Shown here piece after piece: positions 8,851 through 58,840 of a DNA stretch of 64,000 nt. Source of the DNA: a virus (Duplodnaviria; Heunggongvirae; Uroviricota; Caudoviricetes); the IMG/VR virus record IMGVR_UViG_3300037067_027626; one strand, written 5' to 3'. The position numbers were made by a program, and so were the translations under genes. The notes beneath the pieces are model-generated. The model was not told the DNA's origin. It saw only the letters and a list, made by a program, of their open reading frames with translations, and ran no database searches. Within the stretch, counting starts at the first letter, position 1. Every line of letters begins with the position of its first letter.

Positions 8851-8851
8851 A

Positions 8852-35907: not shown

Positions 35908-36136
35908 ATTTTTAAATAAATAATAAAATGATGAACATATAACTTATAATACTGGAATATTAAATATAAACCGCCATAGAGTTGTATAATATATGAATAA
36001 CAGCCATCGGATTGGATGGGTGATGATATATGAATACTTTACTTTTCTCCTATTAAGAAATACTTGACATTACCCATAATATAGTGCTACGTATTAATTA
36101 ATAGTTCTGTTAATAAGAGAATTATAGGGGAATAAT

Positions 36137-36307
36137 ATGACTGCAAAACAAAAGAAGCCTTGGATTCTAACAAGGGCACGTTCCGAAGCATTAAAAAAGG
36201 CACAGCTCACCCATGTAATTTTGATAAATATCGGCAAGAAGTATCGCAATAAAGAAATCAATAAGTTCCAATTCTTGAAGAAGAATAGACCTAATAAATC
36301 AAAATAA
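36137..36307 (+). CDS. tiny basic protein (56 aa)
   Basis: ATAGGGGAATAAT lies upstream of the ATG. The protein is Lys/Arg-rich. Confidence 0.4.
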   Translation: MTAKQKKPWILTRARSEALKKAQLTHVILINIGKKYRNKEINKFQFLKKNRPNKSK

Positions 36308-36321
36308 GGAGGATTGCTAAT

Positions 36322-36414
36322 ATGGCTTATACTAAAGCAGAGCGTAAAAAGGCGGCAAAGAAAGCCGTTGCCACTAAGCGTAAGAGATACGGCAAGAACT
36401 TAAAGAAGGGATAA
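36322..36414 (+). CDS. tiny basic protein (30 aa)
   Basis: AAGGAGG ribosome-binding site. Translates to MAYTKAERKKAAKKAVATKRKRYGKNLKKG. Confidence 0.4.
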   Translation: MAYTKAERKKAAKKAVATKRKRYGKNLKKG

Positions 36415-36452
36415 ATAAGTATTTCGGATAAATTATTAAAAAGGGAGAATGA

Positions 36453-36548
36453 ATGCCGAAAAGAAAACCAAACAATATGTCAAAGGAACAATGGGCAAAG
36501 GAAAAGACTCAGTGGTATACAGGGAAAGATAAAAAGAAGAAAAAATAA
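36453..36548 (+). CDS. tiny basic protein (31 aa)
   Basis: AAGGGAG ribosome-binding site. Translates to MPKRKPNNMSKEQWAKEKTQWYTGKDKKKKK. Confidence 0.4.
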   Translation: MPKRKPNNMSKEQWAKEKTQWYTGKDKKKKK

Positions 36549-36623
36549 CTTACTGAGCGTCATCAAATAAAATAAGCAAGATTCCTACGAAGCCCAAGGG
36601 CGACAGGAATATAGGGAGAATGA

Positions 36624-36761
36624 ATGCAAGCGTATTGTGTAAAATGTAAACACAAGAGGGAAATGAAAGCCCCAAAAGCCGTTAAAATGAAAAATGGAAG
36701 AAAGGCTACAAAGGGTAAGTGCCCTGTATGCGGAACGGGTATGTACCGTATAGGCGGATAA
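36624..36761 (+). CDS. small basic zinc-ribbon protein (45 aa, DUF5679-like)
   Basis: AGGGAGA ribosome-binding site. Has CVKC...CPVCG pairs separated by a K-rich linker. Confidence 0.45.
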   Translation: MQAYCVKCKHKREMKAPKAVKMKNGRKATKGKCPVCGTGMYRIGG

Positions 36762-36793
36762 TTCTGAGGGAAAATTTGTTCATTTATAAATAA

Positions 36794-36830
36794 GCCCCAT
36801 GATAATTAGTCGTGGGGTTTGTTTATTTTA
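36794..36830 (+). terminator. rho-independent terminator
   Basis: The stem gcccca...tgggg is followed by tttgtttatttta. Confidence 0.45.
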
Positions 36831-37254
36831 GTTGGATTTTTTAGTGAGACTGTCTAGTAAAATCATTCTGCAATAGGTGGTTAACTGCATACCCTTCTTC
36901 TCGGCTTCTACCTTCAATAACCCCTTTTCTCTCAAGGGCATACGTATGAAAACTACGGGCATGTCTTTCTTTCTATAGACCAATATAACACACCTCTATA
37001 TTTATACTGTGAAAAAACTAGCACATATTTAGCGTGTTGTCAAGTGGTCGTGCGTAAATATTTTTGCCCCAAAATACAATACTATATCACTTTGCTATTG
37101 TATTATTATTTTACTGTGTTATCCTACTACTTAAAAGGTACTACACTTGAATCTAAAGTTGGAGGTCTATTATTTTAAGAATATATGAAGGCTATTTTTG
37201 CATTAATCCTTGCGGCAATCGGACTTTACATAAATAAAATTGTGTCTTTGGGTA

Positions 37255-38566
37255 GTAATATCCATCGAATAACCACCCTAACTCTGGAAAAGCTAAACTC
37301 AATATTGAGCAAGCTAATCACAGAACTAAACACGAAAATGAATCGTGAAATGCGTGGAGGTCATATAGGTGGAATCCTTAAATGGGATTATGAGATGACC
37401 CGATACTCCAATAAAAATTGGAGATTAACAGATGAGGAGTCAACTTACTGCCAGGTCTTAATACAACTATAGCTACAATCACTACCCCCACGTGCATAAG
37501 TGCGTCTTTATAGAGTAATCTATATCGAAATTGCCCTAATTCGGTGAAGCCTAAAACGAGAGTCATGGTAATGCCGAGCCAAGCAGAATAGAAATATTCG
37601 GGCGTGTGTAGAGAACATAGAGGCAACCCCTAGTAATAGGGTGAAAACATGTTCCGTCACTCCGTGAAAGCGGAGATTACAGATAGATTCCACAGGGGTA
37701 AGATAATTTGCCCACTCATATAGTAATATGTGAGTTAAATTGCTCCAAATAGGGGGAAGCTAAAAACCGTAAGGTTCATGCTAATCGCCTAACTAAACTA
37801 GAGAATGAATCTAGGAAACTGATGACAGACTAGACGGAGCAAGTCCTGAATAGGACTAAGGTATAGTCGGACACTCCGAATAAATTCGGAGACTAACAAG
37901 TGAAGTGGCATGGTGGGTGTTACGTAATGAAAGATTTGCGTCTTTATAGAGTAATCTATATTGAAAAGAACCACAAATTCGGGGAAAGCTAAAACGAAAG
38001 TCATGCTAACCGCCGAACTAAACTGCTGAATGAAGGCAGGATAAGCGTAGAGAGTAGATGTGGTTGCCCTTTAATTAGGGATAAGGTGTACTCCGACACT
38101 CTAAAGAAATTTGGAGATTAACAAGTGTAATCGTATAATAAGCGAATGCGACCTTTAATAGTGATATTAATTGAATAACCGCCCTAACTCTGGGAAAGCT
38201 AAAATGAAAGTCATGCTAACCGCAGAACTAAATTACCGAATGAAGGTATAAATGCGTAGAGAACATATAGGCGGGGTCTTACGAAAGACCGTGAGATGTT
38301 CCGATACTCATACGAAAGTAAGAGATTAACAAAAAATTCGCAGCCATGTTGGTAGTCCTGAGAACAATCGGGACTTTGAACAGTAATGTTCATCGAATAA
38401 CGCATCAAATTCGGGGAAGCCTAAACTCAATAATGAGCATGGTAATCGCCGAGCTAAACCAAGGAATGAACTTGGGAAACTGTGGACAGACTAGATGGTG
38501 CGAATCCCTATAAATGGGATTGTGGTATAGTCGGGCACTTAACGAAAGTTAAGATTACAGAATCGG
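37255..38566 (+). ncRNA. array of 6 tandem ~180-245-nt structured RNA-like units (unclassified)
   Basis: Unit spans are approximately 37261-37430, 37501-37683, 37722-37900, 37935-38125, 38152-38335 and 38375-38566. Conserved blocks are ggRaagcYuaaa, RgYCAUGSUAAYCGCCGARCUAAA, a hairpin with loop GAAUGAA, and a 3' GAGAUUAACA. Hairpin stems covary between units: ctgc/gcag, tacc/ggta, ccaag/cttgg, ctaga/tctag, cacg/cgtg. A second hairpin covaries as ctcaa-tat-ttgag, aacc-gtaa-ggtt and ctca-ataa-tgag. Two subtypes exist (units 3 and 6 versus units 2, 4 and 5). Confidence 0.55.
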
Positions 38567-38627
38567 ATTGTAGCCGCCATGAGAGAGTCATTCTCCATGT
38601 AAAGTTGTATCCATTTGTGGTGGTAAA

Positions 38628-38665
38628 AGAGAGCGAGTAGAAATATTCGCTCTCTTTTTATTTAT
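38628..38665 (+). terminator. rho-independent terminator closing the RNA array
   Basis: The stem agagagcga-gtagaaatat-tcgctctct is followed by ttttatttat. Confidence 0.55.
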
Positions 38666-39020
38666 AGAAGTATTCCTTAATTCTATTGGCTATTTCTGAT
38701 ATTGGGTGTTTTTTAACTTCGTGTTCCCATAATATCAATGTTTTATAACCACGCTCTAATAAGAATTTCATTCTACCATTATATTTTTGATGTTCTTTTA
38801 GGCGAGGGTTATTATCGTTGTGATGATAATCTCCAAAATGTTCTATGAGCCAATTATGTTGTTTATGTTTGAAATCGGGTAATTTACCATCTATATCTTC
38901 TTCTGGGTTATAACCAATAAATTCCCACTCATTAGGGAAGTATGCGCCATTGATAACCACAATTATCACAGAGATATGCTTGGAGATATTGTTTTTTACC
39001 TTTACTCCATTTTGTTCTTT
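38658..39020 (-). CDS. DUF559/Vsr-like endonuclease domain protein
   Basis: DFKHKQHNWLIEHFGDYHH...RMKFLLERGYKTLILWEHEV matches the DUF559 C-terminal signature. The start is taken at the internal Met. This ORF overlaps 38932..39681 in another frame. Confidence 0.4.
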   Translation of the reverse strand, partial: KEQNGVKVKNNISKHISVIIVVINGAYFPNEWEFIGYNPEEDIDGKLPDFKHKQHNWLIEHFGDYHHNDNNPRLKEHQKYNGRMKFLLERGYKTLILWEHEVKKHPISEIANRIKEYFYK

Positions 39021-39681
39021 TCCCATATTTATAGATTTTATCGCTTGTTTGGCATTTAGGACATATTTTTGTAGGCAATTCTTCTGATAGGCTTTCATAT
39101 TCGTCTTTTGGAATATACGTATCGCCATCCAATTTAACGTGTTCCATGGGATATAGTTTATCGGTTTCATAGTTATATTCAGACACATTTTTATATTTGC
39201 CACGTTTATAATCCGACGGCATATAGAATGTTTTACCAGTCGATGTGTCCATATAGCGCTGAACTTTACCACCCCTGCGGGGAATTTCTCCGACTTTACG
39301 ATACCGTTTCAGTTCTGTATTTATTGGTTCGGTTATTTCTACTTTTGGATTTTTTTTAAAAGCATTCGGGTTATATTGTGGTTTCATTGGTAATTCTGGA
39401 ACATTATTAACTATCGAATTATTTTGTGTAAATAGATTAGAATTAATCAAACTTCGGTTAGAAAGTTGCCATTTTATAGCCTCCTCAATTGTTTTATGGC
39501 GTGGTTTAGATAGATTGCATTTATGGTGCATGACTGCTAAATTATTAGCTTCAAACTCGCCCCCGTTGCATCTATCTATAATATGCCCTAAATCATAAGA
39601 ATCATAATCCACTTCTGCGTTACACACCCAACAGATTCCTTTATCACGTCTGTAAATACCTATCCTTAAATTATCACTCAT
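38932..39681 (-). CDS. HNH endonuclease with C-terminal InsA/IS1595-like zinc ribbon
   Basis: The N-terminus has CWVC...DLGHIIDRCNGG...NL.VMHHKCN. The C-terminus has CPKCQTSDKIYKYGKRTKWSKGKKQYLQAYLCDNCGYQW. Confidence 0.45.
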   Translation of the reverse strand: MSDNLRIGIYRRDKGICWVCNAEVDYDSYDLGHIIDRCNGGEFEANNLAVMHHKCNLSKPRHKTIEEAIKWQLSNRSLINSNLFTQNNSIVNNVPELPMKPQYNPNAFKKNPKVEITEPINTELKRYRKVGEIPRRGGKVQRYMDTSTGKTFYMPSDYKRGKYKNVSEYNYETDKLYPMEHVKLDGDTYIPKDEYESLSEELPTKICPKCQTSDKIYKYGKRTKWSKGKKQYLQAYLCDNCGYQWRILP

Positions 39682-39993
39682 TTTTATTTATCACCACTAT
39701 CATCTTTTATTGATTTTTCTATTGCTTTAGTAATTAAATATTTTAGATATTCTAATTCAGTTAAATTTAATTTTTTGGCTAACATAGAAAGATTTTCATA
39801 CATTTTTTCGGATATGGTTAGAATGATTCTTTTGCTCATAATTTATTACCTCCTGATATATTAATAGTATATACTAGGTTACTAAATATGTCAATAGGGT
39901 GACTTATTATATATTTGACAAGACTCATTACCTGTGCTTTAGTGTAATTAAATACATAAATAAATAAATGAAATTAAGTATGTGGAAGATACA

Positions 39994-40128
39994 ATGTTAA
40001 TATGTCCGAAGTGCGGTAGTTCAAGAGTAGTCAAACTAGGTTTTATCCCTACTATTCATGGGGAAAAACAGAGATATAGATGTCATAAAGGGCATACATT
40101 TTATGCGAAAAAAGACTATAAAAGATAA
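39994..40128 (+). CDS. small InsA/IS1595-like zinc-ribbon protein (44 aa)
   Basis: Translates to MLICPKCGSSRVVKLGFIPTIHGEKQRYRCHKGHTFYAKKDYKR. Confidence 0.35.
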   Translation: MLICPKCGSSRVVKLGFIPTIHGEKQRYRCHKGHTFYAKKDYKR

Positions 40129-40143
40129 TGAGGAATTTTATAA

Positions 40144-40446
40144 TTGTTTAAGATAGTTAAGAAATACTATAAGAAACCAAGACGGGGCGAACCTATTATA
40201 AGATATAAAGCTAAGGATTCTAATGAGAATTTCAGATTAGATAAGGGCGATAAAATAATAATAAGAATAGACCCTGCATTAAAAAAGAGACGGGATATTG
40301 AGCGTTCCTTAATGAAGCATGAGAAAACCGAATTAATGCTCAGGGCAAAGGGGGTAAAACTGAATAAAGCCCACAGGATTGCTAGAAGCAAAGAACCTAA
40401 ACTTACCCGTAATAAAAGTTTAAATGACATCTGGAAAATGCTCTAA
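40144..40446 (+). CDS. small basic protein (100 aa)
   Basis: K/R-rich sequence with a TTG start per the ORF track. Confidence 0.4.
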   Translation: MFKIVKKYYKKPRRGEPIIRYKAKDSNENFRLDKGDKIIIRIDPALKKRRDIERSLMKHEKTELMLRAKGVKLNKAHRIARSKEPKLTRNKSLNDIWKML

Positions 40447-40466
40447 TAAATTAGGAGGCAAATTTT

Positions 40467-40652
40467 ATGCCGATAACCGATGAACTGGACATAGACAACA
40501 TATTCAGTGGGAAAAAGAAAGTTCCTTTAGAGGGAGAAATTAACAGTACCGATAACTACCCTAGATTAGACATAATGGGCTTGGCGAGAAAAAAGAGAAA
40601 GAAAACCACTGTAAGACGCAGGACTGTAAAAAGACACTGCAAACGAAAATAA
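40467..40652 (+). CDS. small basic protein (61 aa)
   Basis: TAGGAGGCAAATTTTATG start context. The C-terminus reads KKRKKTTVRRRTVKRHCKRK. Confidence 0.45.
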   Translation: MPITDELDIDNIFSGKKKVPLEGEINSTDNYPRLDIMGLARKKRKKTTVRRRTVKRHCKRK

Positions 40653-40673
40653 AAATAATTAGGAGGAATTTCA

Positions 40674-40823
40674 ATGGCTAAAAAGAAACAAAAGGCAACT
40701 AAACAAAAGGCAATTTTTGCGGATTCAATATTTGCAAAACTGGATGCAAAAGACAAGCAGATGACAGCATCTATAGGTAAAATGGATAATGCCTTTAAAA
40801 TGCACAAGAAAAAGGGGGATTAA
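40674..40823 (+). CDS. tiny basic protein (49 aa)
   Basis: TTAGGAGGAATTTCAATG start context. Begins MAKKKQKATKQK. Confidence 0.4.
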   Translation: MAKKKQKATKQKAIFADSIFAKLDAKDKQMTASIGKMDNAFKMHKKKGD

Positions 40824-40825
40824 TA

Positions 40826-40939
40826 ATGGCGAACAAAAAGAACAGTTATTTCGGCAATTTTCTCAAGTCCATAGAGAAAAAAGAAAAGAGAATCAACACT
40901 AAACTTAATGCAACTACCAAGAAACTCTTGAGGAAATAA
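40826..40939 (+). CDS. tiny basic protein (37 aa)
   Basis: AAGGGGGATTAATAATG start context. Confidence 0.4.
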   Translation: MANKKNSYFGNFLKSIEKKEKRINTKLNATTKKLLRK

Positions 40940-40956
40940 TTTTAAGAAGGTGCTGT

Positions 40957-41160
40957 ATGAGTATATACGCTTTACCGAGAAAGAAGAAATTTCCTTTAGG
41001 GAGCAAAAAACAGGCGATTTCTGCTGTAGCCTATGCGGTTAAATTAGCTAGACCTGAATATAAGAAAATTACACCGCAAGAACGAGATATTGTGTTACGG
41101 AAGGTTCATTCTCGCTATCCTAGTATAAATATTAGTCCAATAAGAAGAAGGAAAAAATAA
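40957..41160 (+). CDS. small basic protein (67 aa)
   Basis: K/R-rich and ends RRRKK. Confidence 0.4.
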   Translation: MSIYALPRKKKFPLGSKKQAISAVAYAVKLARPEYKKITPQERDIVLRKVHSRYPSINISPIRRRKK

Positions 41161-41748
41161 TTGAAGTGCGGTAGGTGTTCGTCAGTTAATATAGGTAAAG
41201 GGGGGGAAGACCGTTTTCATCGGCAGTTATGGTTATGCAGGGATTGTGGTTTTAGGTCAACTAATGTTGAAAATTATAACCATGTAAATTCAGTTATTGC
41301 TAAGATGCCACCATTAAAGAAGTTGTGGTCAAGAATAACGATAGATGAAAATAAGGGGTGTTGGAATTGGCAAGGTAAGCCTGATACGGAAGGATATGGA
41401 GAAGTAAGGATTTCTAGTCAACTTTATAAAGCCCATGTTTATTATTACCAAATATTTGAAGGAGTTATTCCAGAGGGTTTGGAGTTAGACCATCTATGCC
41501 GAAATCGTATTTGTGTAAATCCGAAACATTTAGAACCCGTGACGCATCAAGTGAATGTTTTACGAGGGAAAAGTCCTCAATCAATTAATGCTCTTAAAAC
41601 GCATTGTATTCATGGGCATATATTATCAGTAGAAAATACATATGAATCTAGTAGAAATAATTTCAAGTATAGGCAATGTAAAATATGTACTAGGGAAAGG
41701 GCTAAAAGATATTTGTTGGATAAAAAGCAATTAATACTAACAGTTTAA
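41161..41748 (+). CDS. HNH endonuclease with N-terminal zinc ribbon
   Basis: Contains GCWNWQGKPDTEGYGEVRI...LELDHLCRNRICVNPKHLEPVTHQVN, the classic HNH motif. The N-terminus has CGRC...CRDCG. Confidence 0.6.
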   Translation: MKCGRCSSVNIGKGGEDRFHRQLWLCRDCGFRSTNVENYNHVNSVIAKMPPLKKLWSRITIDENKGCWNWQGKPDTEGYGEVRISSQLYKAHVYYYQIFEGVIPEGLELDHLCRNRICVNPKHLEPVTHQVNVLRGKSPQSINALKTHCIHGHILSVENTYESSRNNFKYRQCKICTRERAKRYLLDKKQLILTV

Positions 41749-41777
41749 TAATAACGAGCAAAATAGTTGGAGGCAAA

Positions 41778-41885
41778 ATGAAAAGGGCTGGTGGCAGTTC
41801 ATACAAGAATACTAAAGAAAGAAAATGGTTGGCGGAATACGATAAAAAACACCCCAAAGATAAAGAGATAAGAGGGAAGAAATAA
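41778..41885 (+). CDS. tiny basic protein (35 aa)
   Basis: TTGGAGGCAAAATG start context. Confidence 0.35.
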   Translation: MKRAGGSSYKNTKERKWLAEYDKKHPKDKEIRGKK

Positions 41886-41888
41886 TAA

Positions 41889-42296
41889 ATGCCAACAATG
41901 ATACCTAAATATACTGTTAGAGAATCTTATTATAAGCGTTCTCGACCTGACGAGTCGCCAATGAAGAATAGTGTAGAGGTGAGATGGTATACGCAAAAAC
42001 CCTCTCGGTCTAATAAACTATCTAAACCTAAAAAGGTGTGGTTGCCCCAAGTAAAGATGACTGTCAAGAAAGACCCTATATTAAAGAAATATCCTAAGAT
42101 AGAAAAAGAGGGCATGAAGCACGAACTTAGAGAAATGAAGGCGATATGGAAATATCGCCATCTGAATAAAACTGAGAGGGGCGATAAGGCTCATAAAGAA
42201 GCTAAGGCAAAAAATCCTTCATGGTTAAGTCCTGCTATCAATAAAATGAGGGAAGAACAGAAGAACCCTAATTGGCGTAAAAGTAGGTGGGGATAA
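41889..42296 (+). CDS. basic protein (135 aa)
   Basis: K/R-rich throughout. Confidence 0.4.
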   Translation: MPTMIPKYTVRESYYKRSRPDESPMKNSVEVRWYTQKPSRSNKLSKPKKVWLPQVKMTVKKDPILKKYPKIEKEGMKHELREMKAIWKYRHLNKTERGDKAHKEAKAKNPSWLSPAINKMREEQKNPNWRKSRWG

Positions 42297-42313
42297 AAAT
42301 AAGGAGCAAATAA

Positions 42314-42487
42314 ATGGGCAATAAAAAGAAAACAGGCAAGAGGAAAATAGATGTAAAGAACCTTCATTTGGGTGAGCAGTGGTCGCCTAAAAGCAAAGAC
42401 CCGATATACAGACAACTATCTAATAAGGATAAGAAGATGAAAAGCTCCTTAACAAAATTAGATAGAATTGGAAGAATTAAAAAATAG
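42314..42487 (+). CDS. tiny basic protein (57 aa)
   Basis: AAGGAGCAAATAAATG start context. Confidence 0.4.
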   Translation: MGNKKKTGKRKIDVKNLHLGEQWSPKSKDPIYRQLSNKDKKMKSSLTKLDRIGRIKK

Positions 42488-42497
42488 GAGCAAAATT

Positions 42498-42614
42498 ATG
42501 GGATTCAAGGAAAATTTAGAAGCGAGTTTTAAGGGAGCAGACAAACTTGGTAGTGACCTTATTAAGGATGGTAAAAATCTAGGCAAAAAGAAGAACAAAC
42601 GTAAGGGGAAATAA
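42498..42614 (+). CDS. tiny basic protein (38 aa)
   Basis: ATAGGAGCAAAATTATG start context. Confidence 0.4.
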   Translation: MGFKENLEASFKGADKLGSDLIKDGKNLGKKKNKRKGK

Positions 42615-42615
42615 A

Positions 42616-42723
42616 ATGGCTAAAGGGAAGTATAAAGACTATGGGCGTTCTAGGGTATATGAGCCGAAACGTAAGAAAGAAAGAACACTCAGTAGTAAGG
42701 TAAAAACTTATAAATCAAAATAA
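42616..42723 (+). CDS. tiny basic protein (35 aa)
   Basis: TAAGGGGAAATAAAATG start context. Confidence 0.4.
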   Translation: MAKGKYKDYGRSRVYEPKRKKERTLSSKVKTYKSK

Positions 42724-42735
42724 GGAAGCAAAATT

Positions 42736-43221
42736 ATGGCAAAGAGATTATCTGATACTATGAAACGCCAACGGGCTGAAGCAAAAAGAATGAAGGCTGA
42801 AATGCGTCAGCGTGAGAAAGCAAGAAAACAAGATGCGGTTAAGCGTCAGAGAGCCGAAGATAGATTAATAAAGTTACAGGAAAAGATTAGAATAAAGAGG
42901 GAAAAGGATAGATTACGACAGGCTGAGAGAGAAGCAAAAAATAGACAGAAACAGATTGAAAGAGAAGCAAAAAAACGACAAAAGCAAGAAGAAGAAGGGC
43001 GGAGAAAAGCCCTTACAGCCTTTACTAAACAACAGGAAGCAAATAGAAAACGTGCAAGACAAGAAGCCGAGAGAAAAAAGTTAAACGAAAGACACAGTAA
43101 GGCAACCTCAGTGTTATGGGGTTCTCCACGTTCTGAAAAGGAACGTAGGACTAATATCACAAAGAATAAAGCAGTAGTAAGAAAAGTAATGCACAAACTA
43201 AAGAGGAAATTAATCTGGTAG
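42736..43221 (+). CDS. highly basic K/R/E coiled-coil protein (161 aa)
   Basis: TAAGGAAGCAAAATTATG start context. Contains an RQRAEAKRMKAEMRQREKARK-type repeat. Confidence 0.5.
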   Translation: MAKRLSDTMKRQRAEAKRMKAEMRQREKARKQDAVKRQRAEDRLIKLQEKIRIKREKDRLRQAEREAKNRQKQIEREAKKRQKQEEEGRRKALTAFTKQQEANRKRARQEAERKKLNERHSKATSVLWGSPRSEKERRTNITKNKAVVRKVMHKLKRKLIW

Positions 43222-43225
43222 GTAT

Positions 43226-46200
43226 ATGATAAAAAAACTCCATTACAATAAATATTTGAGGATTTTACTAACCGCCTTTATATTGGCGGTTTTATGTATT
43301 CCCTCTTTACCTTTATTCCATATAAATCTGTTTGATGTGCCAGTTGGTGCGGCTACAAGGGATTTATATTGGATTGGCGGTAGTGGTGATTGGAGCGATA
43401 CGGCAAATTGGTCATTAACATCAGGAAATTCTGATAATAGTTCACCTCAAGTTGTACCAGATTCAGATGATAATGTGTATTTTGACGCTAATTCAGGGTT
43501 TACGGGGATTAGTAGGACAGTAACAATGAATAGTTCTCCTGGTTATTGTCTTGATATGGACTGGACAGGTGCGCCGAATAATCCAATATTTAATAGACAA
43601 AATAATGCGGATTTATATATTTATGGCTCGCTGACCTTGATTGCGAGTATGACATTTGATGCTGTAGCGGCTAATGGTCGAATTGGTTTTCTGTCTACCT
43701 CTGCGGGCGAAACAGTAACCACCGCAGGAGTAAATCTCAACAATGTGTTATACGGTATGGAATTTGCTGGTAATGGTGGTGAGTGGACATTACAGGATGA
43801 GCTGACTGTTTCTAGTATCACACATACTAAAGGCATTTTAGATACCAATGACCAAACAATCAACTGCAAGGGTTTTTTTACTACTGGCAGTAATGCTAGA
43901 GAGTTAATACTAGGTAATTCCACAATAAATATATCGAATACTGGGTACTTTCAATATACTGGTTCTAATTTAACATTGGGTGAGGGAACTTCAAGTATTA
44001 TAACAGATGGTACGTCTGGAACTTGTAAGTTTTATGGTAATGGCGAAACTTATTATGATGTTCAATTAATCAATGTCCACTCATTATCAACTACCGACAA
44101 TAGTCTCATCAGTGGGGCAAATACTTTTACAACTCTAAGTATTAGCGGGGATGCTTCCACTGGATATACTACTAACATAGATGCAAATCAAATCATCACA
44201 GGTACTCTAACTATTGCAGGTGATTCTGCTGTAAACCGTTTATTAATTCGTTCAGATACCATCGGAACGGCACGTACTTTAACAGCCGCAACCGTAACGG
44301 TATCTAATGCGGATTTTCAGGATATAACGGGTGCTGGTACTGCTTCTTGGAATTTATCTGCAATAACGGGGAAATCAGGCGACTGCGGAGGTAATTCAGG
44401 AATTACCTTTACTACTGCCGATAATATGTATTGGAGCAAAAATAACGGGGCATGGACAGACCCCGCTAATTGGTTCTTAGCGACTAACGGCGGCGGTGGT
44501 GCTGGCAGAGTTCCATTACCTCAAGATACTGCAATATTTGACGCAAATTCCTTTGATGACACGGGTAAAATAGTTACCATAGTTGATAATTATAGAGTTG
44601 GAGATATTGACGCTTCGGGTGCTACGTTTGCACCTACATTCGGTAGTGGCGATTTTAATGTATTAGTCTATGGTTCGATAACATGGGGTGCTATGGATAT
44701 TCACGCCAGTATAGATTGGTTCTTTTATAGCAGGTATAGTGAAACATTAACCTCAGCGAGTAAGACTTTCCCTGATATTACAATCGGTAGCACAAGCGGT
44801 GATGGTATAAGCGGTACATTAACCTTGCAAGATGCCCTTACGTCAAGCGGTATCGTAACTTTGAATAGAGGCACACTAGATTTCAACGACCAGAATGTAA
44901 CTATGGCAACATTCGATTCATCTACTAATACCTATACACGTACTTTATCAATGGGTGATGGCGAAATTACAGTAAACTCAACTGCCGCAGTAAATAAATG
45001 GAATATAGCAACAGGGAGTTTCACGCTTAATAAAGATAACTCGACTTTAATCCTAACTAACTCAGGGACTAACGCACAATCAATTACAGGCGGTGGCAAA
45101 ACATATGATGGTTTAACAATCAAAGGTGCTGGTGTTTATACACTAACATTCAATGATGCGAATACATGGAATACAATGTTAATTGACCGTTCTGAAGCAG
45201 CAAAGACAATCGCTGGCAATGTTATTCAAACTGTTACAAATTTAACAATACCAGTTTCAGGAACAACACAAGTAACTATTACTAATGTTGATTTTGTTAA
45301 ATCTTCTGGAACTGTTGCTTTGGGTTATGTGACAATATCAGGTTCAGTTGTCGATGGTGTCGGTAGTGGTGCAGCGTTTTATGCAGGTGCAACTCCACCA
45401 TCGGTTAATGGTGGTTCTAACTCAGGTTGGAACTTTACAGAACCTTCTGACCCTATCTTAACTACTTTAGGGGCAAGTGAAGTATCATTTTACACTGCAA
45501 AATTAAATGGTGTTCTGGATAGTATGGCAGGACAACCTAATGGTTATATTTCTTTTCAATATAGTACAGACCCCGCATATCCTAGTGATTCTACAGTAGT
45601 ATCAAGCGGAGAATATACAACACTCCCAGGTGAGTTCTTTTATAATATTACATCAGGACTTTCCGCAGGAACTACATATTACTTTCGCATAAGATTCTAC
45701 TATGGTACTACTTATGCTTATGGTTCTACGGTGTTTTTTACGACAGCAGGCGGTACTGGTGTACCTACTGTAATAACGGGTTCAGCCACTAATCCCACAT
45801 CAAGCACAATAACTTTACAAGGTGTAGTAACGGATATGGGTGGCTATACTACCGTGAATCTGTACTTTGATTATGGGGTTACTGCTTCTTATGGCGATAA
45901 TATTACTGCTACCGTACCTACGGCAACTGACATAGGTGCTTTCTCTGTTAAATTAACGAATTTACAAATGAAAACCACTTATCATTTCAGGGCAAAAATC
46001 GGTTATATTGTATCAGGTGTAGAAATATTCGCTTATGGTGCTGATGGTACTTTTACAACTACCATAACAAGCGGAACGGATAGTGGTGGTCAGCCTTTAC
46101 CTAATCTTATATCACAGATATTCAATGGAGGAGTATTTAGTTCCTTTCTTGAAAGTAATGATTTATTATTTATAGCGGAAATTGCTAATACTTATGCAGA

Positions 46201-47011
46201 TAACACTACTAATAAATATTATCCTAACGGCAACATTTCTAAATTATTTGTATTACAGTTAGTCAATACCGATGGCAGTACGGTTTTAGCCCAAGTACCC
46301 TTGAGAGATTGGGGCTTAAAACCCATTTCTATATACATGAATGCCTCAACATCAAGTAATATGACTTTGGGCGAAAATTATATATTAAGACTACACGCTT
46401 TATTCACTGCCTCACCACCTACCGATGTAGATTATACACTTCAGGATGACGATTGGTATGGTAATGATATGAACTCCCTTGATTTCTGGTGTGTATCAGT
46501 AGCAGGAGAGATGAATACCTACTATAGTTTATGGGGCAAAACGGGTTCAATGCTCACTAATACCATAGATAAAGGGGCAATCATCAGTCAGGATGGTACG
46601 GGATACTTCGTTGAGGGAATTCCCGAAATAGATTATGTCAGACCCGATTTATTCTATGCGGTTTCCTCTAAACCTATCTTTACTACAGGAACAGGCACAA
46701 ACGCTTTTGCGGCAAACCATATCTGGACTTCACAGGTAGGTACAAAAATTGCCGCAGACTTTACAACATTCGGGGGATTGTTTGATGTAAACGGCTCAGA
46801 AATGATGGGATGGCTAATTGGTCTGATTATCATATTTATCGTGATATTCTGTGTATCGCAGGGAAGCGGTGCTTTGGGCGGTCTTGTGCTGTGCGTTCCT
46901 TTCCTGATTGCGGGCAATCTATTGGGTGCTATAGGTATACAGATAACGGTAGTCGGCTGTATTCTTTGCTCATTTTTCTTTATAAGGCAGTTTATAATTA
47001 AAACGCTATGA
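43226..47011 (+). CDS. giant surface protein (1261 aa) with N-terminal signal/anchor, beta-helix-like G/T/S-rich repeats and C-terminal TM helices
   Basis: WSDTANW and WTDPANW motifs are typical of right-handed beta-helix (PbH1) repeats. The C-terminal ~70 aa form two hydrophobic helices. Confidence 0.45.
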   Translation: MIKKLHYNKYLRILLTAFILAVLCIPSLPLFHINLFDVPVGAATRDLYWIGGSGDWSDTANWSLTSGNSDNSSPQVVPDSDDNVYFDANSGFTGISRTVTMNSSPGYCLDMDWTGAPNNPIFNRQNNADLYIYGSLTLIASMTFDAVAANGRIGFLSTSAGETVTTAGVNLNNVLYGMEFAGNGGEWTLQDELTVSSITHTKGILDTNDQTINCKGFFTTGSNARELILGNSTINISNTGYFQYTGSNLTLGEGTSSIITDGTSGTCKFYGNGETYYDVQLINVHSLSTTDNSLISGANTFTTLSISGDASTGYTTNIDANQIITGTLTIAGDSAVNRLLIRSDTIGTARTLTAATVTVSNADFQDITGAGTASWNLSAITGKSGDCGGNSGITFTTADNMYWSKNNGAWTDPANWFLATNGGGGAGRVPLPQDTAIFDANSFDDTGKIVTIVDNYRVGDIDASGATFAPTFGSGDFNVLVYGSITWGAMDIHASIDWFFYSRYSETLTSASKTFPDITIGSTSGDGISGTLTLQDALTSSGIVTLNRGTLDFNDQNVTMATFDSSTNTYTRTLSMGDGEITVNSTAAVNKWNIATGSFTLNKDNSTLILTNSGTNAQSITGGGKTYDGLTIKGAGVYTLTFNDANTWNTMLIDRSEAAKTIAGNVIQTVTNLTIPVSGTTQVTITNVDFVKSSGTVALGYVTISGSVVDGVGSGAAFYAGATPPSVNGGSNSGWNFTEPSDPILTTLGASEVSFYTAKLNGVLDSMAGQPNGYISFQYSTDPAYPSDSTVVSSGEYTTLPGEFFYNITSGLSAGTTYYFRIRFYYGTTYAYGSTVFFTTAGGTGVPTVITGSATNPTSSTITLQGVVTDMGGYTTVNLYFDYGVTASYGDNITATVPTATDIGAFSVKLTNLQMKTTYHFRAKIGYIVSGVEIFAYGADGTFTTTITSGTDSGGQPLPNLISQIFNGGVFSSFLESNDLLFIAEIANTYADNTTNKYYPNGNISKLFVLQLVNTDGSTVLAQVPLRDWGLKPISIYMNASTSSNMTLGENYILRLHALFTASPPTDVDYTLQDDDWYGNDMNSLDFWCVSVAGEMNTYYSLWGKTGSMLTNTIDKGAIISQDGTGYFVEGIPEIDYVRPDLFYAVSSKPIFTTGTGTNAFAANHIWTSQVGTKIAADFTTFGGLFDVNGSEMMGWLIGLIIIFIVIFCVSQGSGALGGLVLCVPFLIAGNLLGAIGIQITVVGCILCSFFFIRQFIIKTL

Positions 47012-47727
47012 AAAGATTTATACGTGGTTTTGTATTATTACTCATAATCTTGATTGCCTCTGTACCTGTTTTAGCCGCACCAGGGGATGTATCGGGTGTT
47101 ACCGCTATACCTACGGATGATGAAGTTTCCTTAACATGGATTCGTGGCTCATCGTCAAATACTACAATAATAAGATATCTAAAGACAAACTATCCCACAG
47201 ACCCAACAGGTGCTACCGATGCCAGTGTTTCCGCTTATTCAGGTGTCTTGTTCTTTCATACCGAAACAGGACTGACAGGCGGTACGACCTACTTCTTTAC
47301 ATTATGGGCTTATGACGGAACAGACTATAGTGCCAATGCCACTGCCGCACATATGATGGTCACAACTTACGGTACGGTAAGCGAGGGCGATTCTTTCCCC
47401 TCACCAACTTTCCCTGCTTCTTTTAATCAGACCGCCGATTCTTCAGGATGGTTTAATAAGTTACAGCCTTTTACAGGTGCGATAGATTATTTTGCTACCG
47501 ATTGGGCAATGAATAAAGATATTGCAATGAGCTTGGCGGTATGCGTGGTTATCGTGGTGCTCTCCGTTATCTTATATGTAAGATGGAAGAACATTTTTGC
47601 CGCCTATGGCTTGTCTTTTATCTTAGTATTAGGGGCAACCCAGTTGACTTTACTGCCTTTTTGGGCGATATTTGTTATGCTTGGTTTCGGCTTGGGAATA
47701 TGGGGCATAGAACGAGCATATCAATAA
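47008..47727 (+). CDS. signal peptide + FN3-like domain + C-terminal multi-TM protein
   Basis: Has a cleavable-looking signal (VLAAPGD). PGDVSGVTAIPTDDEVSLTW...GTTYFFTLWAYDG is FN3-like. Three C-terminal TM helices follow. Confidence 0.45.
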   Translation: MKRFIRGFVLLLIILIASVPVLAAPGDVSGVTAIPTDDEVSLTWIRGSSSNTTIIRYLKTNYPTDPTGATDASVSAYSGVLFFHTETGLTGGTTYFFTLWAYDGTDYSANATAAHMMVTTYGTVSEGDSFPSPTFPASFNQTADSSGWFNKLQPFTGAIDYFATDWAMNKDIAMSLAVCVVIVVLSVILYVRWKNIFAAYGLSFILVLGATQLTLLPFWAIFVMLGFGLGIWGIERAYQ

Positions 47728-47747
47728 AATGGAGTATATTTAATTAA

Positions 47748-48089
47748 ATGAAAACTTCATGGATTATCGGTGTTATGATGCTCTACATATCTATTTTCTT
47801 CTATGGCAGTATAATGACAAATGCAAATACTTTAAGTGGCGAAATGGGGCATATATTTAATTTAGCACAACCTACTGGTCTTGACTTGAGCAATCTCATA
47901 ACTGCGGCGTATTCAGTTTCGACTGAGGTTTGGTACTATATGGTAATATTTATTGAAGCTATATTTTTGTGGTTTCCAGGGCTATGGACAGGCAACTGGT
48001 TCTTTGTATGGCTATTTTTATGTGTACCTATTTGCATAGGTATGATATTTGGTATTATTACTATGTTAAGGGGGTCAAGTAGCGTGTAG
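47748..48089 (+). CDS. small multi-TM membrane protein
   Basis: A 113-aa protein with three to four hydrophobic helices. Confidence 0.4.
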   Translation: MKTSWIIGVMMLYISIFFYGSIMTNANTLSGEMGHIFNLAQPTGLDLSNLITAAYSVSTEVWYYMVIFIEAIFLWFPGLWTGNWFFVWLFLCVPICIGMIFGIITMLRGSSSV

Positions 48090-48305
48090 ATGCCTCAACT
48101 ATTAATGGCTCTTATAATTGCTCTCGTATTTGCGATGTTCGGCTTGTTATTTTTCCCTAGCCTGCATACGATGTTGCTTGGAATTGATACTACGGGCATG
48201 GGATATTTATTAACGGCAGGGATTACCTCTATGCCTTATGTCGTGGTATTCGCTATCGTATATGGTGTAATCCTGATAATCAGCAACCGTAATAATAAAA
48301 TCTAG
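48090..48305 (+). CDS. small 2-TM membrane protein
   Basis: A 71-aa protein. Confidence 0.4.
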   Translation: MPQLLMALIIALVFAMFGLLFFPSLHTMLLGIDTTGMGYLLTAGITSMPYVVVFAIVYGVILIISNRNNKI

Positions 48306-48317
48306 GTGTGAAAATAT

Positions 48318-51300
48318 TTGGATGCGTTAGAATATTTTAAATCTCAAGAATTGAAATCGCCCGATGCTCCGAAGCCTTTGGTCTATACGGGTGCTCCCAA
48401 TGTCAGCACACCCATAGGTTATTCTCAACCTATGATGGGCGACCAAACACTAGAGCAGTTTCAACAAGATAATGTGCAACTTCAAGACGGTTCGTGGGTT
48501 ACAAAGGAAGAATACGATAAACTATCCGAGGAAGACAAGGCTTATATTCTGGCGAATGGTATAGAAGCCTATAATAAATACAAACAGGAACAACTTGAGA
48601 TATTTGAGGCGGCTCACGTTAAACTCAATGATGAGTCATGGGTATCGAAAGAAGAATATGATAAATTAAGCGAAGAAGATAAAGCCTACTTAATGCAAAA
48701 CGGTATTGAGGCGTTCAATACCTATAAGAATACACAACTTACGGAATTCAAAACTACTCACATTCAACTTGGTGATGAATCATGGGTTTCTAAAGAAGAA
48801 TTCGATAAACTTTCCGAGGAAGATAAAGCCTATTTAACCGCTAATGGGATTGAGGCTTTCAACATCTACAGACAGGCACAATTACAAGAGTTTGAATCTA
48901 CTCATGTGAAATTAAATGACGGTACATGGGTAACGAAAACAGAATACGACAAACTCTCTGAAGAAGATAAGTTATATCTGATAAATAATGGCGTTACCTC
49001 TTACACCGCTATGGTAACGGAACGGTATAATACCGCTAAATCAACACTACAGAATTTTATCAATCCAGACGGAACTCTTAGATTGAATGAAGCGGTTAAT
49101 GCAGGGATAACGGATTTAAGCGTATATAAGAATGCGGGCTATAACGTAACACAGATAGATGTTGATAATATTAAAAATATACCGCAATATGAAGAACCGA
49201 CACCATTACCAACTCCGATTGAACCTCATCCATTTGACCCGACATACGGGAATTACGTATTAACCAAGCCTGATGAAAATGACCCTACTACTTGGATATT
49301 TACCGACCCGATGACAGGCGAGCAGTATGATTATAACGGGAATTACATTGGGAGTATTCCGCCACCAACCCCACCAGCAAATCAGCCGACTGTTGTATCG
49401 CCAACGGAAGTCGCACCTATTCCAGAGACAGAAGCACATCCGTTTGACCCGACATTCGGTAATTATGATTATGACTCTGAAACTGGAATTTATACCGACC
49501 CGATTACAGGGGAACAGTATGATACTAACGGGAAATATCTAGGTAATGTTGCCCCACAAACACTGCCGAATTATACTCCGCAGTTAGTTAATATTTCACC
49601 GACAGCACCTAATGTAGTAGAGGCTTATAATCCCGATAATAATATGGGGCTTACTACCGCACCGTCTTACGGGGCAATAGACATATCTTCGGGAATGATT
49701 TGGGATGGCACAAAATGGATAACCTCTGCCGAAGCAAAAGAGAGAGGGATAGAGTCAAGGGGATATTATGACCCGATGCAACGCAGTGAAGGTGGTCAAT
49801 TAACGGGCGGAAATTACATAATCTCAAACGGTATTTTAATCCCGACTACTTTCGACCCGACTAAAATTGCCCCAAGCAATATTACGATAGAAGGCGATTT
49901 AGGAACAGGTTATGTCATAAAAATAGACGGGAATGTTTTGAGTACCCAAGGTATGACACCCGACCAGGTTACCAGATGGATAGCAGACATGGGCGGAAAT
50001 CAAATGGCAATTATGCAGTGGGTAATGACCGATGTAGGTATGAGAGGCGGTATGGCGGGTGCGGATAATCTTGCTTTAAAGGCTTCGGAAACTTATCAGT
50101 ATCTAACAAATACCTATAATAACTCAACAGGGCAATTACAATATCAGACTGGCGTTACTCTAGGACTGTTTAAAGATACCGATATACCGATATTTAATGA
50201 CGAAGGGAAAATATCAGGGATAATTACATCGGAAATGCAGAAAGATATGTCCTCAGAAATACTAGACATATTAAGGTCGGCAGACAGAAACAGTATTGAC
50301 TCAGTCAATAAAGCCATAGAAATCGCCAATAACTTATATAAAGGCAACGAAATCAACATGGATGATATGTCTTTCCTTGTTGATGTTTTAGGGCAAGAAA
50401 AAGCCGACCAGTGGGTTGCCAATATTAGGGCGAAACTTGCAGAACAACAGGCTATCGCAGATTATAACAACGATTTAGTTACCACTCTTTCAACGAGTAT
50501 ATATAATGATATTTCTAACGGCAGAGAGCCTAACTTCCAATATGTAGCACTCTTAAAGACTCTCTTAGGTGAAGAAGGGGAAAAGATTGTCAATGAGTGG
50601 ATAGATAAAATTACCACTCAGGGCATTAAAATAAAGGCATTATCGAGTAGTATATTAAACGCTATAGAAAACAGTGGTAAGGCAAATCCCGATGATGTGG
50701 CGGAATTAGAGAAATTATTAGACCCACAGGCGGTTGCGGAATGGATAGATAATTTAAAATCCGATAAATTTACTAAGGGATTAAAAGGCACTACACTACA
50801 GCAAGCCTCACAAAATATTTCACAGGTACTTGCCGAAAATCCTGATGCAGAACTGGATGCCAATGATGTTTCGGGTCTTATATGGGGAATGGGGCAAGAT
50901 GAGGCTAATGATTGGATAGAAAAAGTAAGGCAACAGAACAGGGATATAAATATACTATCCGAGAAAATACAGAACGATATTTGGAACGGTAAAGCACCTA
51001 ATCCCGAAGATGTTGCTCAATTGTCTGATTTAGTTACACCTCAAACCGCACAGGCTTGGATAACTACATTATCAGATAAACAAAAAGGTTTTGCAGATAG
51101 TCTAAAAGCCTTACCTCAAGAATTACAGGATGCCTATGCTATGGGCGGAATGGAAGGGTATCTACAGGCGGTAGATGCTTACAATAAAAATCTTGAGGAA
51201 AATTTCACCATAGTAGGGCGAGATGGAAACGGGAATCCTTTATATCTATCCAATACTGAACATGTCGCATTAATGGATAGGTTATCCAAAGACCCTGATG

Positions 51301-56759: not shown

Positions 56760-56968
56760 AAAGGCTATTGACAAAGAGGTGAAAATGTAGTAGTTTAATC
56801 AAAATACAATATATATTAATATACTATGAAATCTATATTATTGACCCTAGATGATGATGTGAAGCAAGCCCTGAAAGCGGAAGCTGATAAATTGGGCATG
56901 AAACTTGTGACTTATATACGTATGATACTTATTAAAAGTCTTAAAACCAAACAAGGGGGATATTAAAG

Positions 56969-57508
56969 TTGAGTGCGGAAAATGTAATTTTAGTATTTGC
57001 TGTGTTATTTGTCTGTTTTATATGGTACTCCATTAATAATCTCAAGAATAAAGTATTGGTGATTTATACCCGTAATACAGGACAGGAAATATCCAAGTTA
57101 GTAAGGCTTCAAGACCGCTACGTAGATTTCGATAATAAACAGTTTACCTTAGTACCCGACAGACATAGATTACATTGGAAATCAGTTTTAGGATTATTCG
57201 GTACATGGATAATTTGCTATCATATTTACTGGTATTCACGTTATCCGTCAGACCCACGCAGATTTGAAGTAACAGTGGATAGTCCCTCCGCCGCACATTA
57301 TATGAATGAGGAGCAATCCTATACCGCTTATAATAAATCAGAAGCCGCCAGAGATACATTAAAGAAACGTGGCGGATTTATGCAGTATCTACCTTATATT
57401 ATAATAGGTATAGTTTTAGTGGTCATTATATATATAGTGTGGACTCAGGGTAAAGATATGACCATTATTAAAGGTGCTTTACAAGATATAATAAACGGAA
57501 CGACTTAA
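56969..57508 (+). CDS. membrane protein with N- and C-terminal TM helices
   Basis: A 179-aa protein. Confidence 0.4.
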   Translation: MSAENVILVFAVLFVCFIWYSINNLKNKVLVIYTRNTGQEISKLVRLQDRYVDFDNKQFTLVPDRHRLHWKSVLGLFGTWIICYHIYWYSRYPSDPRRFEVTVDSPSAAHYMNEEQSYTAYNKSEAARDTLKKRGGFMQYLPYIIIGIVLVVIIYIVWTQGKDMTIIKGALQDIINGTT

Positions 57509-57521
57509 AGGATAAGATAAA

Positions 57522-58001: not shown

Positions 58002-58017
58002 AGTTTGAGGGATTTTC

Positions 58018-58839: not shown

Positions 58840-58840
58840 G

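Follow-up and report, generated by a model that had tools for sequence, protein, structure and literature searches.

A linked module of small, lysine-rich proteins and predicted mini-zincins in a large phage-like element

Large plasmids and phages encode nucleoid-associated proteins (NAPs), and histone H1-like Lys/Ala tails are known from HupB/Hlp and Hc1. In adenovirus, the core proteins VII and mu are encoded together with the DNA-dependent adenoviral protease. The baculovirus protein P6.9 is termed "protamine-like" in titles cited by PMC6669607. Here, a stretch of 64,000 nucleotides (nt) from IMG/VR virus record IMGVR_UViG_3300037067_027626 (Caudoviricetes), hereafter referred to as the window, was analyzed. 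It encodes two clusters of small, strongly basic proteins, which a preliminary description of the window had presented as a battery of protamine- or histone-tail-like proteins, with four open reading frames (ORFs) in cluster 1 (36137–36761) and eleven in cluster 2 (40144–43221). All 15 ORFs are present on the + strand at these coordinates, as checked against the ORF list and the raw sequence. The peptides that had been quoted from them are correct, and their location directly upstream of a set of giant genes was confirmed.

Rather than two independent batteries, the clusters would form one linked, lineage-specific module of rare, large (at least 125 kb) phage-like bacterial elements. In this module conserved small proteins would be combined with a Lys/Arg/Glu-rich helical protein of 161 amino acids (aa) encoded before a giant gene and with nine fast-evolving, tiny polybasic proteins. 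It is very probable that the module is real and conserved; its genes are selected at the protein level, and their translation is most probable. Logan contig SRR18595300_15481 matches the window (100% identity over the 14.7 kb compared) and extends about 31 kb past it, and assemblies L003 and L004 contain near-identical copies (1 mismatch over 4145 nt). The source samples include SRR18595300, SRR6484325 and ERZ27247358, along with JGI samples for the relatives. The element must be at least 125 kb long, because a 99%-identical copy of its 100-aa protein is encoded on a 124,964-bp contig of the Joint Genome Institute (JGI). The ORFs of the module are given below, together with two ORFs that had been omitted from the preliminary count; K+R is the fraction of Lys plus Arg residues, pI the isoelectric point and SD the Shine-Dalgarno sequence.

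36137–36307, + strand: 56-aa basic protein, pI 11.3, first gene of the module
36322–36414, + strand: 30-aa polybasic ORF, K+R 0.43, SD AAGGAGG, no homologue detected
36453–36548, + strand: 31-aa polybasic ORF, K+R 0.39, no homologue detected
36624–36761, + strand: 45-aa CxxC...CxxC zinc ribbon, Pfam DUF5679, last gene of the four-gene unit
39994–40128, + strand: 44-aa zinc-ribbon ORF (InsA/Brz-like), weak Pfam zinc-ribbon matches, called on the Logan contig, omitted from the preliminary count
40144–40446, + strand: 100-aa protein, pI 10.6, TTG start, predicted mini-zincin paralogue 1
40467–40652, + strand: 61-aa ORF with a polybasic C-terminal tail (KKRKKTTVRRRTVKRHCKRK), SD AGGAGG, no homologue
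40674–40823, + strand: 49-aa basic ORF, SD AGGAGG, no homologue
40826–40939, + strand: 37-aa basic ORF, start 2 nt past the preceding stop, 4-nt SD core only
40957–41160, + strand: 67-aa basic protein, divergent DUF6582 relative
41161–41748, + strand: 195-aa HNH_3 homing-type endonuclease with an N-terminal zinc ribbon, within cluster 2, omitted from the preliminary count
41778–41885, + strand: 35-aa basic ORF, SD GGAGG, no homologue
41889–42296, + strand: 135-aa protein, pI 10.3, predicted mini-zincin paralogue 2, carries an insertion
42314–42487, + strand: 57-aa basic ORF, SD AAGGAG, no homologue
42498–42614, + strand: 38-aa basic ORF, SD AGGAG, no homologue
42616–42723, + strand: 35-aa basic ORF, K+R 0.40, start 1 nt past the preceding stop, no homologue
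42736–43221, + strand: 161-aa Lys/Arg/Glu/Gln-rich protein, net charge +36, pI 11.5, ends 4 nt before a giant gene

With K+R of 0.27–0.43, compared to 0.126 ± 0.04 in 53 long genes of the window, pI of 10.1–11.5 and net charges of +7 to +36, the 15 small proteins are protamine-like in composition, though Lys exceeds Arg about 2:1, which makes them unlike the Arg-rich true protamines. Nor do they make up the uniform battery that had been described. The set is mixed: two members are zincin-like, one is a DUF6582 relative and one is a predicted single helix.

Relatives of the module were found by a search with the 135-aa protein, which led to contig L002, by a metagenome scan and by a profile search. 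Six of the 15 ORFs fall in five families that are under purifying selection in these divergent relatives, with proportions of nonsynonymous differences (pN) of 0.16–0.37 and saturated synonymous sites (pS 0.69–0.97). The conserved members include the 56-aa single-helix protein, the DUF5679 zinc ribbon, the DUF6582-like 67-aa protein and the two paralogous mini-zincins. The possibility, raised earlier, that homologues would reveal untranslated leaders does not apply to these six ORFs, which are kept as proteins.

Comparative genomics bears out the array as such, since runs of small basic proteins recur in related elements (L002, L005/L010, L008, L016 and L017). In the 718-bp contig L002, a 56-aa homologue, a zincin of the 135-aa type and a DUF5679 protein are encoded consecutively. 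In L016, ten small basic ORFs are found within 7 kb, including those for DUF5679, zincin and DUF6582 proteins, with a secreted protein encoded next. Because genes of both clusters adjoin in L002 and L016, the two clusters are considered one module that was split by selfish insertions, namely ribozymes and cassettes of HNH endonuclease and ribbon-helix-helix (RHH) genes. L010/L005 encode an XRE-family helix-turn-helix (HTH) protein, a 55-aa member of the 56-aa family, basic proteins of 54 and 112 aa, the zincin and a homologue of the 67-aa protein. In L008, a first unit consists of a TTGACA/TATACT promoter, genes for proteins of 57, 36 and 27 aa, a DUF5679 gene and a GC-rich inverted repeat, the last read by eye. 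This unit is divergent from a zincin gene, after which a 1042-aa protein is encoded, and a second run of four basic ORFs (51, 131, 28 and 132 aa) is located right before a gene for a 1403-aa homologue of the 1261-aa giant protein of the window. In L017, a promoter precedes the genes for a 43-aa member of the 56-aa family and for DUF5679. A second promoter is followed by a 32-aa polybasic ORF, a group I-like RNA and an endonuclease gene, after which come genes for a basic protein of 126 aa, the zincin, two proteins of 111 and 46 aa and one of 1719 aa; six small basic ORFs surround the zincin gene in this array.

GenBank phages gave no DNA match to the window, no zincin match and one weak DUF5679 match, no match was obtained when the viral_contigs collection was scanned with the giant gene and the 135-aa protein or in two scans of GTDB representative genomes, and PHROGs and NCBIfam contained no match for the small proteins. 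The recurrence of microprotein arrays across a clade of large phage-like elements that is rare and unclassified appears to be new. A further apparent family of tiny basic proteins was noticed by eye in two relatives, at 2547–2702 (− strand) of L008 and 16174–16305 (+ strand) of L017, with the pattern MP[IV]..RK[IL].NK..W.V....V.AKGTS..KAE.Q.RLL. It adjoins genes for giant or secreted proteins in both contigs and was not encountered in the window.

The 100-aa and 135-aa proteins were recognized by sequence comparison as paralogues of one family of ~100 aa. Its members are rare, with 45 clusters (50% identity) in a set of 1.84 billion representative proteins, and no Pfam, PHROG, NCBIfam or Protein Data Bank (PDB) sequence match was obtained, a profile search of the PDB included. 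The 135-aa protein is 41–43% identical to the L002 and L012 proteins (pN 0.31, pS 0.70). Residues D43, P44, H59, E60, E63 and H77 are invariant in 55 sequences. The AlphaFold2 (AF2) model of the mini-zincin, with a predicted local distance difference test (pLDDT) score of 82.7, has three strands, a helix with H59, E60 and E63 and a next helix with H77. The β-sheet, active-site helix and ligand-bearing second helix expected of a zincin fold are thus all predicted, and IrrE/ImmA-type and CapP zincins are among the structural neighbours of the model. A viral fold library returned non-significant SprT/IrrE-like matches only. In place of the HExxH motif of zincins an invariant HExxE (H59 E60 E63) was found in all 55 sequences. 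The candidate third metal ligand is the invariant H77, located on the helix after HExxE in the predicted, metal-free model. Membership of both proteins in the zincin fold, as minigluzincin/SprT-like proteins, is supported by the modeling. The HExxE...H family appears to be new. By sequence and model it forms a rare branch, orphaned in sequence, of the smallest metalloprotease scaffold known, with predicted protease-like character.

In proteins P0063 (335 aa) and P0070 (303 aa), an HExxE mini-zincin domain is joined to a C-terminal region that contains the canonical HExxH, and a separate 218-aa HExxH protein with a polybasic tail is encoded in L016 (10788–11444), two genes downstream of the zincin. 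The fusions together with the L016 protein suggest that variant and canonical zincins are paired.

The single CxxC..CxxC zinc ribbon that had been noted turned out to be a member of Pfam DUF5679 (PF18930): the 45-aa protein matches model positions 1–40 of 40 (E = 1e-16, 61.2 bits, cutoff 27). Its CVKC...CPVC pairs are conserved in the L002, L008, L016 and L017 homologues, which are 62–81% identical to it (pN 0.16 vs pS 0.73 for L008). In the literature consulted, DUF5679 appears only as a frequent domain of unknown function in polintoviruses and mavirus-like elements. The 67-aa protein has no direct match to Pfam DUF6582 (PF20223) at E values up to 0.1. It does match the protein encoded by L016 10316–10516 (blastp E = 1e-7, 39% identity), which passes the DUF6582 model with 28.5 bits (cutoff 27.3), and by this transitive link it is a divergent DUF6582 relative. 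Its homologue in L005/L010 is 69% identical (pN 0.22 vs pS 0.94). The L016 protein contains LPxSAFA...RKYPIHDxxHARNALAR, where the window protein keeps YALPRKKKFP...ITPQERDIVLRKV...YP and has lost the HxRNAxxR signature. DUF6582 was not mentioned in the literature searched. From the sequence comparisons, the fixed association of DUF5679 and DUF6582-like proteins with mini-zincins appears to be new.

Homologues of the 56-aa protein in L002, L008, L010/L005 and L017 are 35–51% identical to it (E values from 1e-5 to 3e-13; pN 0.31–0.37 vs pS 0.69–0.94). No Pfam, PHROG or NCBIfam match was found, and a single-sequence AF2 prediction gave one helix comprising residues 9–49 (pLDDT 87). The protein thus represents a new lineage-specific family with a predicted single long α-helix. 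PDB sequence searches were empty for the 56-aa family, the 67-aa family and DUF5679. The 161-aa protein is probably a long charged helix or coiled coil. Proteins of like composition, of 132 aa in L008 and 126 aa in L017, occupy a similar position, and all three end in Trp, though the similarity of the 161-aa protein to these counterparts is significant only when composition is not corrected for.

Nucleic-acid binding is suggested by the charge of the small proteins, by their lack of hydrophobic segments, and by the presence of a zinc ribbon, a long basic helix and two basic members of a protease scaffold whose best-known small relatives target DNA-bound proteins. As described in PMC4559962, Wss1 and Spartan are minigluzincin-family proteases regulated by DNA binding. 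The explanation that we favor overall, with somewhat less than even confidence, is a nucleic-acid-binding, charge-neutralizing set of proteins with DNA-tethered mini-proteases. The many polycationic peptides, for the most part without structure, would bind DNA and neutralize its charge together with the zinc ribbon and the long basic helix; the likeliest target would be the large genome of the element itself, for which they may serve as an element-encoded nucleoid or chromatin set or as condensing proteins. The basic mini-zincins would act like SprT/Wss1-type DNA-tethered proteases, processing or removing DNA-bound proteins. Association of the small proteins with nucleic acids, considered separately, is plausible but tentative as well. 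That they form a packaged virion core, as had been suggested, is doubtful at best, because no capsid-type gene was seen.

Several observations weigh against a nucleic-acid-binding set with mini-proteases. DNA or RNA binding has no homology-based support for any member, and DUF5679 and DUF6582 are families without known function. In the mini-zincins the second zinc ligand of canonical zincins is replaced by Glu, and they might be pseudo-proteases or users of another metal. For nine of the 15 ORFs (30–61 aa) homologues were undetected in the sequences of relatives and in database searches, and a codon-frame statistic fails to separate these nine from chance ORFs in purine-rich DNA. No capsid, portal or terminase gene was recognized in the window or in 8 kb past its right end. 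PHROGs matches consist of four weak ones, all to one left-arm protein, and none of the nine right-arm proteins scanned matches. Since no capsid-type gene was recognized and DNA past the window encodes sugar and glycosylation enzymes, a virion context is unsupported. Finally, the consensus σ70 promoters of L008 and L017 and the terminator of cluster 1 fit early or regulatory genes as well as structural ones.

A different possibility is that the module encodes early host-takeover or regulatory proteins, expressed from strong host-type promoters shortly after entry and directed at host targets (the nucleoid, RNA polymerase, RNA or defence) instead of the genome of the element, with the zincins degrading host proteins. 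Two transcription signals of cluster 1 were found.

36053–36092, + strand: putative σ70-type promoter of cluster 1, TTAAGA-16-CATAAT (9/12), overlapping a TTGACA at 36064 that has a weak −10
36786–36826, + strand: intrinsic terminator of the cluster 1 unit, 18-pair stem followed by a T-run

The promoter call is suggestive only, and the consensus promoter scan was overall not enriched over shuffles. The equivalents of cluster 1 in relatives are located behind promoters of consensus type, TTGACA then TATACT in L008 and TTGACA-17-TATAGT in L017. Cluster 1 forms a unit that extends from a putative promoter to a terminator, and cluster 2 runs into the giant genes. Gaps between the genes, which had been given as a uniform 1–20 nt, measure 14, 38 and 75 nt in cluster 1 and 0–29 nt in cluster 2, five of the latter being 4 nt or less. 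The translational coupling proposed for the whole set is supported by the layout of cluster 2, where the genes lie on one strand with these short gaps and no convincing + strand terminator was found between 40144 and 43226; it is weaker for cluster 1. A host-takeover role would agree with the autonomy of cluster 1 and its own terminator, with the promoters of its L008 and L017 equivalents, with the start of the L010 module directly after the XRE-family HTH gene, with the location of the module at a divergent junction beside the replication arm, and with the IrrE/ImmA-type and CapP zincins among the structural neighbours of the mini-zincins. Against it, cluster 2 runs without a convincing terminator into genes for giant secreted proteins, a position that is kept in L008, L016 and L017. 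Anti-defence proteins are more often acidic, which was also counted against this role. On balance we consider it rather unlikely.

The nine tiny ORFs without homologues call for a separate argument, since it could be that only the conserved genes are real and that these nine are chance frames in purine-rich intergenic or leader DNA. The region is strongly purine-skewed on the + strand, and such DNA alone yields Lys/Arg/Glu-rich frames. A codon-usage frame likelihood trained on the 53 long genes was dropped as non-discriminating: all 17 small ORFs favor their own frame, but the same holds for most antisense ORFs and for 78% of those that arise in shuffled sequence. A search of a 5.8-billion-protein set with the nine proteins concatenated returned nothing, not even the proteins themselves, so the set evidently lacks such short products. 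The organization of the DNA points the other way. Between 40144 and 43221, 96% of the + strand lies within ORFs of 30 aa or more, compared to a mean of 26% and a maximum of 57% in 500 dinucleotide shuffles; for cluster 1 the coverage is 80% (shuffle mean 26%, maximum 83%). With stop-to-start distances of 0–29 nt, hardly any non-coding DNA is left in cluster 2. Of the 15 starts, 14 have an SD core of at least 4 nt (background 30% in the same DNA, binomial P = 5e-7) and 8 have one of at least 5 nt (background 9%, P = 1.5e-5). In the 8.9 kb that surround the clusters, 19 SD-led net-basic ORFs of 25–170 aa were counted; the other 55 kb of the + strand contain none, and the complete − strand of the window contains six. 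A gene caller run on the independent assembly (the Logan contig) called 10 of the 11 cluster 2 ORFs. The one missed, the 37-aa ORF at 40826–40939, is the weakest candidate of the 15. Finally, equivalent arrays are present in relatives, and one tiny polybasic gene is common to L008 and L017. We conclude that an origin of the nine ORFs as chance frames is improbable. The strong SD sites stressed in the preliminary description are real, but they are not special: near-consensus sites are frequent throughout the window, and for this reason they argue for translation and not for exceptional expression. Alternative-frame SD-led basic ORFs overlap the annotated small genes at 40789–40902, 36314–36403 and 41791–41871 (all + strand); they are most likely by-products of the purine-rich sequence and illustrate the ease with which basic frames arise in such DNA.

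The giant genes that follow cluster 2 occupy 43226–62026 on the + strand. The first of them borders directly on the module.

43226–47011, + strand: first giant gene, 1261 aa, pI 4.3, K+R 0.04, with an N-terminal hydrophobic anchor/signal and C-terminal hydrophobic segments

The giant proteins (1261, 2813 and 1061 aa) are extremely acidic (pI 4.3–4.7) and poor in Lys and Arg, and apart from one TIG domain they have no PHROG or Pfam match. The 1261-aa protein is 28% identical over 523 aa to the product of the L008 giant gene that is likewise preceded by small basic ORFs. The right arm also encodes a P-loop protein, and genes for GlmS-like, phosphomannomutase, acetyltransferase, cytidylyltransferase and GT4 proteins lie beyond the right end of the window. 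By its gene content the giant-gene region looks like an apparatus for glycosylated surface proteins rather than a tailed-phage structural module. Relatives carry GtrA, GT2, PMT/TMEM260-like and capsule-synthesis genes, and the observation takes in L018 13258–23185 as well. In the left arm are genes for two Phage_rep_O proteins, a DnaC/IstB-like loader, DUF5131, YopX, HNH_3, radical SAM, PAPS reductase and SPFH proteins; by sequence this arm is a bacterial lambdoid-type (lambda O/DnaC) replication module. The two Phage_rep_O genes (283 and 205 aa; 5243–7717, − strand) are adjoining, overlapping paralogues beside the gene for the DnaC/IstB-like AAA+ loader; the lambdoid initiator is thus duplicated in this element, which has 125 kb or more.

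An alternative is that the small proteins pair electrostatically with the acidic giants, or escort them, in synthesis, export or assembly, which would apply in particular to the 161-aa helix encoded 4 nt upstream. The charge complementarity is extreme (pI 10–11.5 for the small proteins vs pI 4.3–4.8 and K+R of 0.04–0.06 for the giant ones), a Lys/Arg/Glu-rich protein of ~130–160 aa is encoded immediately before a giant gene in both the window and L008, and the zincin is kept beside large secreted or membrane proteins in relatives. Yet giant proteins with a signal or anchor act outside the cytoplasm, while no signal peptides were found in the small proteins. Cluster 1 is, moreover, transcriptionally separate, and no precedent family was identified. 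Such an escort function is quite improbable. A more far-reaching idea, by analogy with adenovirus and baculovirus cores, is a new kind of large bacterial virus or virus-like element with a genome of at least 125 kb organized by its own chromatin, in which DNA-tethered HExxE mini-zincins would mature or recycle protamine-like microproteins; giant glycosylated acidic proteins, anchored in the membrane at the particle or cell surface, would replace a recognizable HK97 or double-jelly-roll capsid module. We regard this idea as a long shot.

A structured-RNA array had been noted between the two clusters, and it is indeed there; it consists of six group I intron-like ribozymes. The inserted region has the following features.

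36828–36983, − strand: 51-aa RHH-like gene in the inserted region, outside the battery, weak NikA-like and DUF6290 matches
37222–38560, + strand: six tandem group I intron-like ribozymes of ~200 nt each (Rfam RF00028)
38625–38658, + strand: terminator after the ribozyme array
38658–39681, − strand: endonuclease ORFs, a 249-aa HNH-like ORF overlapping a 204-aa ORF in another frame
39684–39839, − strand: 51-aa RHH gene beside the endonuclease ORFs

The ribozyme units were found with permissive filters, after a whole-window scan at gathering scores had missed all of them. Their RF00028 scores are 66.6, 54.4, 39.7, 34.4, 20.9 and 19.4 bits (gathering score 50), and alignment of the units revealed that the four below threshold are clearly homologous to the two that pass. 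The units are 18–70 nt apart; a P1 with U.G is plausible in each, and a conserved AUUAACAG-like motif comes after the P9 hairpin. Interruption of a tRNA or tmRNA gene by the six ribozymes was rejected, as 9072 exon-joining combinations gave no ARAGORN hit. For interruption of a protein gene, at least 1000 stop-free splice paths exist from 37185, so that the test has no power. The array may be a more unusual object than the microprotein set itself.

The endonuclease/RHH cassette (38658–39839, − strand) is located behind the best promoter match of the region, TTGACA-17-TATACT (39894–39866), and its N-terminal HNH motif is also encoded in L008. The overlapping 249-aa and 204-aa ORFs may be a frameshifted fusion; the C-terminus of the 204-aa ORF resembles a Vsr/PD-(D/E)xK-type nuclease. 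An RHH gene adjoins an HNH endonuclease gene both in the window (38.9–39.8 kb) and at 13555–14548 of L008; the other RHH gene of the window, at 36828–36983, stands alone. The endonuclease encoded within cluster 2 at 41161–41748 matches Pfam HNH_3 (E = 1.2e-9, 38.1 bits, cutoff 24.8) and is best read, from its sequence, as another selfish insertion. The 44-aa zinc-ribbon ORF at 39994–40128 may be what is left of the N-terminal domain of an endonuclease or transposase. In L017, a sub-threshold group I-like match (7918–8127, 27 bits) is followed by a NUMOD3-repeat/Vsr-like endonuclease gene (8284–9003). The match lies a few hundred bases downstream of the DUF5679 gene, past the gene for the 32-aa polybasic protein, a placement comparable to that of the array in the window. 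A tRNA gene (10680–10751) is located inside the microprotein array of L016. It would seem that selfish or RNA elements have a hotspot in this module.

The presence of the small genes among group I ribozymes here, and near a group I-like match and a tRNA gene in relatives, together with a size, charge and zinc ribbon like those of small ribosomal proteins, could be taken to indicate ribosome- or RNA-binding modulators, either mimics of tiny basic ribosomal proteins or RNA chaperones, which would redirect translation or help to express the very long downstream mRNAs. Ribosomal-protein-like membership, which the preliminary description had considered, was not borne out by Pfam or NCBIfam: at E values up to 0.1 no ribosomal or other known family match was obtained, the curated cutoffs of ribosomal-protein models were never reached, and the only chance-level matches were for the zinc-ribbon ORF and the zincin members. 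PDB sequence searches were likewise empty, and a role of this kind is very improbable. The weakest proposal, that of membrane-active cationic peptides, has only small size and positive charge in its favor and is extremely improbable, as none of the 15 proteins contains a hydrophobic stretch (grand average of hydropathy −0.7 to −2.4, Kyte-Doolittle maximum 0.93 over 15-residue windows) and none has a signal peptide.

Whatever the function of the module, the predicted mini-zincins form a rare orphan branch of the smallest metalloprotease scaffold, and the widespread DUF5679 and DUF6582 gain a fixed genomic partnership through which they can be approached by experiment. Consecutive microproteins of 30–60 aa tend to be overlooked, and this locus demonstrates that they can be genuine, conserved features.

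According to the model, the mini-zincins share their fold with minigluzincins (proabylysin 4JIU, projannalysin 4JIX and selecase 4QHF) and with SprT, Wss1 and Spartan. They differ from these in having HExxE...H where every structural neighbour listed has HExxH, and they have no sequence-level Pfam or PDB match to them. With NAPs and H1-like tails, the module shares small, Lys-rich proteins, AKKAAKKA-like stretches (e.g. in the 30-aa ORF) and residence in a large mobile element. In contrast to the NAPs, no HU, H-NS, Lsr2 or other NAP domain was detected here by Pfam or NCBIfam, and there are many cistrons instead of one or two NAP genes. The baculovirus P6.9 and adenovirus VII/mu cores have no sequence relationship to the proteins of the window, which are Lys-rich and not Arg-rich; the protease class differs, and no capsid genes were recognized. 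What may be shared is a functional analogy, namely several tiny cationic proteins combined with a protease for DNA-bound substrates. If the proposed function is correct, the module would represent an element-encoded, multi-component system for coating or condensing DNA that is coupled to a minimal DNA-associated protease, a combination known from eukaryotic large DNA viruses and, to our knowledge, undescribed for bacterial mobile elements.

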